A stretch of 64,000 nt of DNA from a virus. Location: IMG/VR virus record IMGVR_UViG_3300042474_001633, positions 1 through 64,000 of that record; one strand, 5' to 3'. The translations under genes and the position numbers were made by a program. Under the pieces are notes generated by a model. That model had not been told where the DNA came from. It did no database searches and worked only from the letters and a program-made list of their open reading frames with translations. Positions 18,586 to 57,312 of the stretch are shown in pieces; positions within the stretch are counted from its first letter, which is position 1, and every line of letters starts with the position of its first letter.

Positions 18586-19812
18586 ATGGCCTTATCAAAT
18601 TTTGTAGTTAGTGAAAATGTTATTGCGGACAATTTGCCCTCATTTGACGAGGTCGCAGTTTCGGCATCTACAGTAACAACCATTTCATCTTTTAATAAAG
18701 ATGTTGCAGACAATGTTGAATTCACCGTAAAAGTCACACAGGGTATCCGCAGGTATTCATCGAAGTCCCTTGCGCTGCACGATGGTTCAACTGTTGATTT
18801 GGCTCAGTATGGGGAACTGTCGATTGCTGGCTATAATCCACCTAGCACTTGGACCACCCGAACTTCAAACTTTGGTAATACGACCATCCGCTCCGTCGCA
18901 TACGGAAATAACCTGTGGGTCGCTGCAGGTGGATATAGTCCCGTACTCGCCACATCCACAGACGCGGTCACATGGACCACACGAACATCAAACTTTGGTT
19001 CCTACAACATCAACTCTGTCGCCTACGGAAACTTATGGGTCGCTGGTGGGAACGAAGGTAGACTGCGCACCTCAACGGACGGAACAACTTGGACTACAAG
19101 AACTTCAAACTTTGGTAATACACACATCAAATCCGTCGCTTTTGGCAATAATCTATGGGTTGCGGGTGGATACTATGGTCAACTTCGTACATCAACAGAC
19201 GCAGTAACTTGGACAACCAGAACATCAAACTTTGGTAATACACACATCCTCGCCGTCGCTTATGGCAACAACCTCTGGGTCGCTTCTGGATACTCTGGAC
19301 AAATTCGTACCTCTACAGACGGAACAACCTGGACGACCAGAACATCCAACTTTGGTAATTCACGCATCCTCTCCGTTGCCTACGGAAACAACCTTTGGGT
19401 CGCTGGTGGGGATGGTAGTGAAGTAAGAACCTCAACCGATGCAGTAACTTGGACAACCAGAACATCAACCTTTTCTAGTAACAACAGTATTAAGTCCATT
19501 GCTTTTGGCGCCAGTTTCTGGGTTGCTGCTGGGTACAACAACGGTCAACTGTCTACCTCAAGCGATGCCATTACCTGGACCACACAAACCTCAAACTTTG
19601 GTAATACAAACATCCACTCACTCGCTTACGGCAATAATCTTTGGGTGCTTGGTGGTGGCTACGGTCAAATCCGCACATCAGCCGTAGCATCGATAGCAAT
19701 ACCACTGACACTCTCCGCTGACATTTCTGGTTCAGATGTTCGACTGCGTGCAACTATTACAGACGCGAATACATATGGTGCCACGGTAAAGGTGCTTAAG
19801 ACAGTCCTCTAG
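18586..19812 (+). CDS. Beta-propeller (7 blades) virion/adhesin protein
   Basis: Seven repeats inserted between HDG...QYGEL and LSADISGSDVRL carrier segments. Confidence 0.8.
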   Translation: MALSNFVVSENVIADNLPSFDEVAVSASTVTTISSFNKDVADNVEFTVKVTQGIRRYSSKSLALHDGSTVDLAQYGELSIAGYNPPSTWTTRTSNFGNTTIRSVAYGNNLWVAAGGYSPVLATSTDAVTWTTRTSNFGSYNINSVAYGNLWVAGGNEGRLRTSTDGTTWTTRTSNFGNTHIKSVAFGNNLWVAGGYYGQLRTSTDAVTWTTRTSNFGNTHILAVAYGNNLWVASGYSGQIRTSTDGTTWTTRTSNFGNSRILSVAYGNNLWVAGGDGSEVRTSTDAVTWTTRTSTFSSNNSIKSIAFGASFWVAAGYNNGQLSTSSDAITWTTQTSNFGNTNIHSLAYGNNLWVLGGGYGQIRTSAVASIAIPLTLSADISGSDVRLRATITDANTYGATVKVLKTVL

Positions 19813-55804: not shown

Positions 55805-56155
55805 CTAAACCTGGGCGCGGACATTGGCGTTGAGGGTTCGCAAGGCATCAATACTCGTCCTGAGTGAAAGAAGTTTTTCTCGCTTTGCCCTAACTAGTGC
55901 TTCCGCGATTTCGTAATCCTCTTTCATTTGTTCCATCTTGTAATGAGACCATTGCTCTCTGTCGGTGATTGTTCTGTGCCCCTTGCCAGCAGCTCCTAGA
56001 TATTCTTTTGCCCATTCCGCCTTGTACCTGGCGTCTTTTTTTGCAGCGTCCACGGCGAGTATTTCAAAGTTTTCAGTTTCTTTTTCGAGCAGGTCGAGCA
56101 GTCTCATCATTTCTCGTTCAATGTCCACCTGGCTGATTGGTTGACTTCTATTCAT
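55805..56155 (-). CDS. Hypothetical coiled-coil protein
   Basis: 116-aa helical ORF overlapping the end of the RuvC-like gene. Confidence 0.65.
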   Translation of the reverse strand: MNRSQPISQVDIEREMMRLLDLLEKETENFEILAVDAAKKDARYKAEWAKEYLGAAGKGHRTITDREQWSHYKMEQMKEDYEIAEALVRAKREKLLSLRTSIDALRTLNANVRAQV

Positions 56156-56678
56156 TTTCTATCCCTTCGAGTGGGGACCAGTCTATCTTCTCTAGCGCCG
56201 AGAGAGAAATGTTTGACCACTTATATTTTGCATTTCCAATTTTTGCCAAAACCATTTCTTCAAGAACCCACGCATCGCACATATCATCAGCATGCCCCCC
56301 TTTCCAAACTATTCCCGTAATAGCTGATATTGCAGATATGACTTCTGACTTGCCAGCGTTCCCTTTGCCTGTGGCAAATTTTGCTCGACAAGTAGGAGGC
56401 ACGATTATGTATGGAATATCAAGATTTAGCAAGGCAACCCTGACAACACCGCCAAGCTCCCCAATTGAGTGAGCCTGAGAATTTCTTGATGCAAAAGAAT
56501 AACCCTCTATGGCTACCAATTGTATTTTGTTGGAAACCGCAATATTGCCAATTTCGCTGGCTATTTTCCTCAATCTTTCAGCTCCAGATAAATCAAAAGA
56601 AAGATAACCAGCTTCTCCAGCATGGCAATACCCAGTGGATGTAAGTGATAGGTCGAGACCTAGGATGTTCATGGGCAC
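56148..56678 (-). CDS. RuvC-like Holliday junction resolvase
   Basis: ILGLDLSLTSTG, VAIEGY, ELGGV, KFATGKGNA.K and DD..DA RNase H-fold acidic residues. Confidence 0.88.
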   Translation of the reverse strand: MPMNILGLDLSLTSTGYCHAGEAGYLSFDLSGAERLRKIASEIGNIAVSNKIQLVAIEGYSFASRNSQAHSIGELGGVVRVALLNLDIPYIIVPPTCRAKFATGKGNAGKSEVISAISAITGIVWKGGHADDMCDAWVLEEMVLAKIGNAKYKWSNISLSALEKIDWSPLEGIENE

Positions 56679-56693
56679 GCAAAACTCTACCCC

Positions 56694-56728
56694 ACAAACA
56701 AAGACCCGCCGGGTGTAATCCCGACGGG
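56694..56728 (-). terminator. Intrinsic terminator closing candidate sRNA B
   Basis: CCCGUCGGG-AUUACA-CCCGGCGGG (9 bp, one G.U that forms only on the minus strand) followed by UCUUUGUUUG. Confidence 0.7.
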
Positions 56729-56822
56729 AATTAACACAGACAGACGTCCATGTCTACTTTGCGTAGTTATTCACCACTAGACCTTGGACCACCTGCCTTT
56801 CTTTTCTCAGAAACGGCTGTAA
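56695..56822 (-). ncRNA. Candidate sRNA B with 16S rRNA 3'-end (anti-SD) complement
   Basis: Extended -10 TGgTACTCT (56829-56837); AGAAAGGCAGGUGGUCCAA at 56784-56802; internal hairpins; terminator; no ORF longer than a few codons behind the SD-like tract. Confidence 0.55.
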
Positions 56823-56881
56823 GACCTTAGAGTACCATTACAAAATTATTAGCTCAGGTAAAGAGATGTTGGCGCGCACAT

Positions 56882-56942
56882 AAAAAAAGAGACGCAAGAA
56901 CCGGGGGCTGCACGTTGCCCTGTGCCCCCGGCCCTCGCGCCT
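56882..56942 (-). terminator. Long intrinsic terminator hairpin (3' part of sRNA A; could also end HNH transcription)
   Basis: AGGCGCGAGGGCCGGGGGC pairs with GCCCCCGGUUCUUGCGUCU, then CUUUUUUU. Confidence 0.8.
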
Positions 56943-56958
56943 ATAACGGTCCTAAGGA
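56882..56958 (-). ncRNA. Candidate sRNA A with 5' complement of 23S rRNA helix 69
   Basis: TAGAAT -10 (56964-56969); CCUUAGGACCGUUAUAG (56941-56957); 19-bp stem with four G.U pairs; U7 tract. Confidence 0.6.
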
Positions 56959-57009
56959 TATTAATTCTACAACTGAAATGTCTTTCGTGTTGTAAACGCA
57001 AGTAATGTT

Positions 57010-57312
57010 TTAACGTTCCCAGCCGTGCTTGGCTAAACCTAAATCAAAAGCAAGCTGCGGATAGTTTCCAATTCGATTGTGACATGGCCTGCATACCGCA
57101 AGAAGATTTTCCTCATCGAGTATCGACCCACCCTGAGAGCGTCTAATTATTTCGTGAATGTCGCAACTTCTGTTACGAACATATGTCAACTTCTCGTCAT
57201 GTTCAGCAAATACAGGACACGCTTCGCAAAATGGTTTTTTTGACAAAAGTTTTTCTACGAGCGGGCGCCTCAGCAAATACTCTTCTTGTTTCTTTTTTGA
57301 ACGATATTTCAC
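57010..57312 (-). CDS. HNH endonuclease
   Basis: CEAC...DIHE...RSQGGS....NL..VCRPCHN. Confidence 0.88.
   Translation of the reverse strand: MKYRSKKKQEEYLLRRPLVEKLLSKKPFCEACPVFAEHDEKLTYVRNRSCDIHEIIRRSQGGSILDEENLLAVCRPCHNRIGNYPQLAFDLGLAKHGWER

Follow-up and report, generated by a model that had tools for sequence, protein, structure and literature searches.

A conserved guide-and-hairpin RNA module of uncultured phages with complementarity to helix 69 of 23S rRNA

The locus between the HNH and RuvC genes

The window analysed here, a stretch of 64 kb (64,000 nucleotides), constitutes the first part of a 160,282-bp IMG/VR virus record (IMGVR_UViG_3300042474_001633) of an uncultured lake phage. 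The genes that surround the element described below are all encoded on the minus strand, in the order large terminase, Rad52-like annealing protein, PD-(D/E)XK exonuclease, a 191-aa protein without family match, HNH endonuclease, a spacer of 331 bp, RuvC-like resolvase and ParB-like protein. The HNH endonuclease gene (100 aa, positions 57010 to 57312, minus strand; Pfam HNH, phrog_15522) stands immediately upstream of a guide-and-hairpin element, called module A in the following, and the gene of the RuvC-like resolvase (176 aa, 56148 to 56678, minus strand; phrog_159 at 5e-34, Pfam RuvC), the protein that served as anchor and query for retrieving related loci, lies downstream of it. The small HNH and the RuvC-like genes form a conserved pair (seen for example in loci L029, L039, L040, L045 and L080), HNH being the upstream neighbour with or without RNA modules. 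Since HNH ends directly at the RuvC start or within RuvC in many relatives, the RNA modules can be regarded as insertions at the HNH-RuvC junction, and HNH appears to be a fixed partner of RuvC rather than a mobile homing gene. A 50-aa open reading frame that overlaps module A (56849-57001) was considered as a gene and discarded, as it has no family match and the loop length varies among relatives.

A second RNA module, module B (56705 to 56862, minus strand), is placed between the U-tract of module A and RuvC. It consists of a promoter-like TTTACC N16 TAATGG, internal hairpins, the core AGAAAGGCAGGUGGUCC (56786-56802, minus strand) and a terminator (56705-56728, minus strand). The core is conserved in about 38 unique related loci, over which it follows the pattern A(A/G)GG, one or two variable bases, GGUGGUC, and it complements what we take to be the 3' tail of a Gram-positive-type 16S rRNA, with one bulged C and one G-U pair. 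The two modules are separable, as A is found without B and B without A, and their order is reversed in some phages, B coming first. We also considered whether module A might pair with module B or the RuvC ribosome-binding region, and rejected this because no conserved complementarity was apparent on inspection.

The same record encodes two WhiB-family proteins above the Pfam cut-off (111570-111767 and 142570-142761, outside the window), and its terminase (TerL) is nearest to Gordonia phage terminases, which together make an actinobacterial host likely. The genome has a GC content of about 45%, and the host is probably a freshwater actinobacterium. A search among GenBank phages found no DNA match to this phage and no close cultured relative.

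Guide, hairpin and promoter-like region of module A

Module A carries the 17-nt guide CCUUAGGACCGUUAUAG (56941 to 56957, minus strand), a perfect complement of a 23S rRNA segment that we take to be 1914-1930 in E. coli numbering, consistent with the alignment of the genuine 23S gene on contig L175 and with Rfam. The plus strand at 56941-56957 accordingly reads CTATAACGGTCCTAAGG. Its identity with the universal 23S segment, claimed in an earlier sequence-only reading of this DNA, can be read directly, and the natural setting of the segment, GTAA-CTATAACGGTCCTAAGG-TAGCG, is seen in L175. In the Rfam LSU consensus the match spans the 3' part of the loop of helix 69 (H69), the 3' strand of H69 and the short junction thereafter. 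The window contains no genuine 23S fragment at this place, as the flanks differ from 23S (GTAA on one side, TAGCGAAATTCC on the other), and CTATAACGGTCCTAAGG is a single copy when up to two mismatches are allowed in the window or up to one in the whole record. No exact match longer than the 17-mer exists between this genome and the L175 fragment of 23S (about 2.5 kb), and for 30 shuffles of that fragment the longest match to the genome was 13-16 nt. The earlier estimate that a 17-mer match would arise by chance with a probability of about 0.03 is a fair one. Within a single genome the match is mildly unusual, and how much weight it deserves depends on its conservation in other phages, not on single-genome statistics. 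Another sequence of the window, the 12-mer GTTTGATGTTCT, also matches 23S, in this case by chance; its seven copies (minus-strand reading, at 19219, 20277, 20655, 21686, 25403, 25646 and 28564) each have about 60 nt of similar flank and resemble a repeated coding domain in the large genes there.

The guide leads into a long hairpin (56890 to 56942, minus strand, from the fold; family consensus stem 56892-56940) and then into a U7 tract (56882 to 56888, minus strand, read directly) that completes the shape of an intrinsic terminator. The sequence-only reading had described a 19-bp hairpin and U7 downstream of the guide, and both are present on the minus strand: the stem comprises 19 consecutive pairs, and a fold of 96 nt reaches -44.1 kcal/mol (z = -3.5). 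RNAalifold on 31 diverse members of the family yielded a consensus stem of 14 pairs that starts one base after the motif, with compensatory double changes in 13 of the 14. G-U pairs are frequent in the stem, the first pair being G-U in 25 of the 31. Moreover, in 30 of the 31 sequences folding of the gene strand is more favourable than that of the complement by about 10 kcal/mol. This strand-specific stability and the covariation indicate that the functional RNA is the strand antisense to 23S. The opposite candidate, an rRNA mimic made from the sense strand, was rejected on account of the poorer folding of the complement.

Two extra basal pairs in the hairpin of the window take in the last two bases of the guide, A and G. 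The proposal that these bases sit in the base of the hairpin, where they would be hidden from m3-pseudoU1915, therefore holds for the window but not as a feature of the family, for which the consensus stem begins beyond the motif. Positions 1-15 of the guide are predicted to be unpaired with a probability of 0.93 in this RNA and a mean of 0.64 in the family; for positions 16-17 the family mean is 0.40. When only secondary structure is considered, the predicted energy of the 17-bp duplex between guide and 23S is -28.1 kcal/mol, and the predicted opening costs are +5.6 kcal/mol for the target and +3.7 kcal/mol for the guide, or +0.25 kcal/mol for its first 15 nt. The modelled secondary-structure energetics would thus favour pairing of guide and 23S, tertiary contacts, ribosomal proteins and m3-pseudoU1915 lying outside the estimate.

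Upstream of the guide a promoter-like -10 box, TG followed by TAGAAT (56964 to 56971, minus strand), occupies -14 to -7, counted from the first base of the guide. As had been pointed out before, and as is read directly on the minus strand, 6 nt separate TAGAAT (56964-56969) from CCUUAGGACCGUUAUAG, which comes next. Among 47 unique family members T-12 is found in 40, A-11 in 39, T-7 in 39 and G-13 in 38, and TAnnnT at -12 to -7 corresponds to the canonical numbering of a -10 hexamer if the guide starts at +1. A consensus scan for a canonical sigma-70 -35/-10 pair found none for module A; a -35-like hexamer is situated 21-22 nt upstream. Actinobacterial promoters depend mainly on the -10 box, and -10 boxes without canonical -35 are common there. 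The placement of TAnnnT fits such promoters, and the region may be considered a putative promoter. Since a second -10-like hexamer is present at -6 to -1, transcription could also start inside the guide. A promoter of T7/SP6 type was envisaged as well, because the motif ends with TATAG and contains TTAGG, and was discarded since the motif occurs as a single copy in 160 kb and the hairpin follows immediately.

Conservation and variation in other phages

Related loci were fetched by the RuvC protein alone, the motif playing no role in the retrieval. Among the best 80 loci obtained in this way, in most of which RuvC is only 55-64% identical, the exact 17-mer is found in 17 and the motif with up to four mismatches in 41, always on the strand of RuvC and always upstream of it; conservation across homologous loci, which the sequence-only reading had named as a check on the guide, is thereby borne out. 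In two further RuvC-anchored sets the motif is present within five mismatches in 85 of 158 loci. For the RuvC-retrieved loci the information content amounts to 1.3-2.0 bits at guide positions 2-17 and falls below 0.85 bits just upstream, indicating that the conserved block starts where the complementarity to rRNA starts. In the other direction the conserved block continues from the guide into the covarying stem. As about half of the related loci do not have the element, it must be dispensable.

It had also been considered that the hairpin might be nothing else than the terminator of the HNH gene, in which case the 17-mer could be absent from relatives. The 17-mer is kept, as just described, and the hairpin tracks the motif. 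In the closest RuvC relatives (L003, L004, L006 and L007) HNH is present and motif and hairpin are both absent, and in other relatives without the motif HNH abuts or overlaps RuvC with nothing between them. Since HNH-bearing relatives that do not have the motif do not have the hairpin either, the hairpin is not simply an HNH terminator, and motif and hairpin are, as judged from these comparisons, gained and lost jointly as one module.

A scan of IMG/VR with the exact motif retrieved at least 115 contigs, and L175 is, among the matches listed, the only real 23S gene, so that in at least 114 phage contigs the motif is not part of a 23S gene. The architecture of guide and long hairpin is common to most of the exact-motif contigs listed; one subgroup differs in its promoter region and is longer by 14-15 nt at the 5' end. 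Fourteen contigs present the motif in other, unrelated gene contexts, for example with ribonucleotide reductase (RNR) on one side and DNA polymerase on the other, next to an endolysin gene where an operon ends, in the vicinity of a ferredoxin-like gene, or beside a nuclease and polynucleotide kinase. On L106, L145 and L182 a 22-nt match runs against the direction of the adjacent genes; unless a separate promoter exists, the mRNA made there would contain a sense 23S-like sequence. In GenBank phages a 30-nt query matched the 17-mer only as 23S contamination. One of these cases is Paenibacillus phage Pd_22F (MZ092003.1, about 83.0-83.3 kb), a record labelled 'complete' with a real stretch of 23S near its end, which probably came in as host DNA during assembly or by transduction.

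In several separate lineages the complementarity to 23S reaches, in differing ways, beyond the 17-mer. In L141 it comprises 28 nt (1914-1941) with one G-U pair, in L082, L147 and the L010 subgroup 23 nt, and in L104 and L106 20-22 nt; L087 has an additional 6 nt of complementarity across a one-base bulge. The L010 subgroup at the same time has four mismatches within the 17-nt core and has lost part of its 3' half. The chance of a six-base extension is 1 in 4096 each time, and chance would not produce it repeatedly; selection for pairing or repeated antisense capture of rDNA is required, and both of these tie the element to 23S. On a more sceptical view the extended matches could have been inherited from captured rDNA and not been selected for pairing. 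A sub-lineage (L044, L053, L010 and L013, upstream of RuvC) keeps UCGCUACCU, the complement of 23S 1928-1936, together with the hairpin and has lost the 3' half of the 17-mer, suggesting that the addressed stretch of rRNA can shift towards H70.

Some lineages have guides with two to four mismatches. It could be imagined that such guides have adapted to variant hosts, and co-variation of guide and target was considered for the L035 variant CTATAGCGGCCCTAAGG; in a collection with one genome per species (185,579 species) it has nine matches, none of them in a 23S gene. The guide variants are therefore tolerated drift against an invariant target, not an adaptation to variant hosts. Among transitions within the guide, with lineages counted by eye, about 10 events keep a G-U pair with 23S and about three create A-C mismatches. 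The pairing-keeping events include C1 to U (three lineages), A8 to G (two) and C9 to U. With a neutral expectation of 8 of 17 for pairing-keeping transitions, the binomial p is about 0.03 for these lineages counted by eye, and the bias towards RNA-RNA pairing is suggestive, not conclusive.

Possible roles of module A

How could such a module act? Across diverged neighbours and unrelated gene contexts a stretch of 17 nt, single-stranded by prediction, is held invariant, and the only partner that would account for this is the rRNA, itself invariant. We therefore consider it somewhat probable that module A is a phage RNA that pairs with 23S 1914-1930, and 23S rRNA is the only long complementary partner that was identified for the guide. 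The comparisons show its sequence, conservation, strand-specific structure, modular nature and spread among unrelated contexts; that it is transcribed from the predicted start, that it pairs with rRNA in the cell and that it affects the ribosome is what we infer. In this phage the transcript would be about 75 nt long and made up of a guide at or near its 5' end, positioned by the -10 box, the covarying hairpin and the U7 terminator. The guide would pair with 23S 1914-1930 on the free 50S, on which H69 is exposed, or on 23S under assembly. H69 makes up bridge B2a and is in contact with tRNAs and recycling factors. Pairing would open the helix and thereby disturb bridge B2a and subunit joining, or the maturation of the 50S; alternatively, the duplex would mark the rRNA for an RNase that depends on double strands or on 5' ends. 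The sequence-only reading had inferred an RNA that invades H69 and affects the joining or recycling of subunits. Tertiary contacts probably hold the junction bases 1925-1930 once the 50S is folded, and m3-pseudoU1915 would block one pair. Moreover, as the phage itself needs working ribosomes, a plain inhibitor would require dosing or timing.

The ribosome-directed reading is strengthened by the neighbourhood of module B, since the complementarity of the two adjacent modules concerns functional parts of both subunits, the large one for A and the small one for B. In an extended form, which we put forward tentatively and with some doubt, A and B would make up a two-part RNA toolkit against the host ribosome, A pairing with H69 of 23S and B with the 3' tail of 16S, the anti-Shine-Dalgarno sequence, so that they jointly re-programme or shut down translation or assembly.

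The element could also act in cis, as 5' leader or as processing or stability element of the RuvC operon (a 3' UTR element elsewhere), its single strand binding a protein or phage RNA and the rRNA match being a relic of captured rDNA without function. A U-run after the hairpin is present in some relatives and absent in many. In the short-form loci, which have no U-run, RuvC starts about 60 nt after the motif and about 25-35 nt after the hairpin, so that the element there would be the 5' leader of the RuvC mRNA and not a terminated sRNA. The guide-plus-hairpin RNA on the minus strand that the sequence-only reading had postulated is strongly backed by conservation, covariation, strand specificity and TAnnnT, but not as an sRNA that is terminated throughout, as it is a RuvC leader in many phages. 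With its 17-19 bp the stem is reminiscent of a site for RNase III or of an element that stabilises mRNA, and dispensability among relatives would suit a cis element as well. Yet the same guide recurs in unrelated gene contexts with unrelated flanks, in the window a terminator and module B separate module A from RuvC, and the 160-kb genome contains neither a second copy nor a complementary site to which the single strand could bind. A relic, in addition, would not remain exact over 17 nt beside upstream sequence that is not conserved. Overall we hold a purely cis-acting role to be unlikely.

A further alternative accepts the pairing and replaces the steric block by destruction, the duplex or the guide's 5' end recruiting RNase III or RNase E/J to the rRNA of the host or its precursor, with the consequence that synthesis of new ribosomes is shut down and nucleotides are released. 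The guide is located at the extreme predicted 5' end, and from such a position sRNAs with a 5'-monophosphate can activate RNase E at the RNAs they target. A double-strand RNase would be suited by complementarity that reaches 28 nt, as in L141, although a duplex of 17 bp is short for RNase III. A precedent is the cis-antisense RNA of H. pylori that pairs with the leader of the 23S-5S precursor, whereupon the duplex is cut by RNase III (PMC6582327). Like module A in the reading proposed here, this is a natural RNA that pairs with rRNA in bacteria, in this case with the precursor; in contrast to module A it is non-viral, encoded by the host opposite the rRNA leader and fully complementary by position, and it targets a leader that is later removed and not the mature core, whereas the target of module A would be a universally conserved functional helix. 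Cleavage and steric block are indistinguishable from the present data, and we judge destruction as the principal action to be improbable.

It has to be asked as well whether the motif is conserved as DNA, that is, as target or decoy of an endonuclease or recombinase that recognises rDNA, or as the core of an attachment site, with the hairpin as an unrelated terminator. The 17-mer lies inside the recognition sequence of I-CeuI, an HNH gene adjoins the motif, and this stretch of rDNA is described as a hot spot for introns and homing endonucleases (PMC2602781). The I-CeuI site, however, is double-stranded DNA within the 23S gene, whereas the phage motif is isolated, belongs to the predicted transcribed, antisense strand and is fused to a covarying hairpin. 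The juxtaposition of motif and hairpin is fixed across lineages with different flanks, the hairpin is strand-specific and rich in G-U pairs, and substitutions in the guide lean to transitions compatible with G-U, which would be meaningless for a DNA site. Furthermore, HNH is present with or without the motif and there is no integrase nearby, and a DNA site is to our judgement very unlikely. A mere coincidence, a 17-mer that arose beside the terminator of the HNH gene, can practically be dismissed, for even though match lengths of up to 16 nt are reached with shuffled 23S and scans of many windows yield some chance 17-mers, chance would not account for the conservation of the exact stretch, the extended matches in other lineages and the co-occurrence of motif and hairpin.

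For the preferred reading, an RNA that pairs with H69, several known systems offer comparisons. Like the trans-acting seed-plus-terminator sRNAs of bacteria and phages (RybB, OmrA/B and MicC type), module A would be a short transcript with a single-stranded 5' seed and a structured 3' part, in this phage a hairpin and U-run, and its seed is far more conserved than the rest. Unlike in these sRNAs the partner would be the mature core of 23S and not an mRNA, the complementary stretch is 17-28 nt as opposed to 7-12 nt, and many relatives of module A have no terminator and head an mRNA. The probable host group, the actinobacteria, is not known to have Hfq. The C/D and H/ACA snoRNAs of archaea and eukaryotes are also small RNAs that pair with conserved functional rRNA, and H69 itself is heavily modified. 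By eye, no C/D or H/ACA boxes and no pseudouridylation pocket were noted in the 76-nt RNA, and among the Rfam snoRNA families none reached threshold and none overlapped the element, a weak sub-threshold match to SNORA52 lying elsewhere in the spacer. We know of no partner proteins of the C/D or H/ACA type in bacteria or phages. Rfam families as a whole gave no match at gathering scores in the entire window, and permissive settings on 56600-57050 produced chance-level matches only, all with E > 0.5. A literature search that included the literal sequence and covered mostly journals outside subscription found no published description of module A; papers with the 17-mer sequence deal only with I-CeuI sites, primers and rRNA.

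A parallel to a concerted action of A and B is man-made. Synthetic PNAs against H69 (Kulik et al. 2017) and against the place on 16S where mRNA binds (Hatamoto et al. 2009) inhibit bacterial growth, in the case of H69 that of E. coli (PMC7038079). PNAs address by plain complementarity the same two rRNA sites as modules A and B; they are short, artificial molecules with a neutral backbone, whereas module A is a natural virus-encoded RNA, known here from its sequence. If both modules pair as proposed, nature would have chosen the same two sites, H69 and the anti-Shine-Dalgarno sequence, that designers of antisense antibiotics found effective. A two-part toolkit, if true, would correspond to antisense antibiotics in a natural form that a virus encodes and would be a hitherto undescribed way of taking over the host, by which for instance leaderless or phage messages could be favoured.

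Taken together, module A is by sequence comparison a real, conserved and widespread phage RNA module with highly specific complementarity to helix 69 of 23S, for which we infer the mechanism outlined above. Because every bacterium shares the universal target, these 17 nt would be effective in all of them, which would explain the conservation and makes testing in model organisms easy. Even if the effect should turn out to be a different one, module A represents a widespread family of structured RNAs of uncultured phages for which no description was found and whose evident partner can be put to the test. The tools that phages are known to direct against the ribosome are proteins. These phages probably use RNA to act on the large ribosomal subunit of their hosts, and if this is true, phage RNAs would base-pair directly with the most conserved functional RNA of the ribosome, which would constitute a new class of virus-host interaction.
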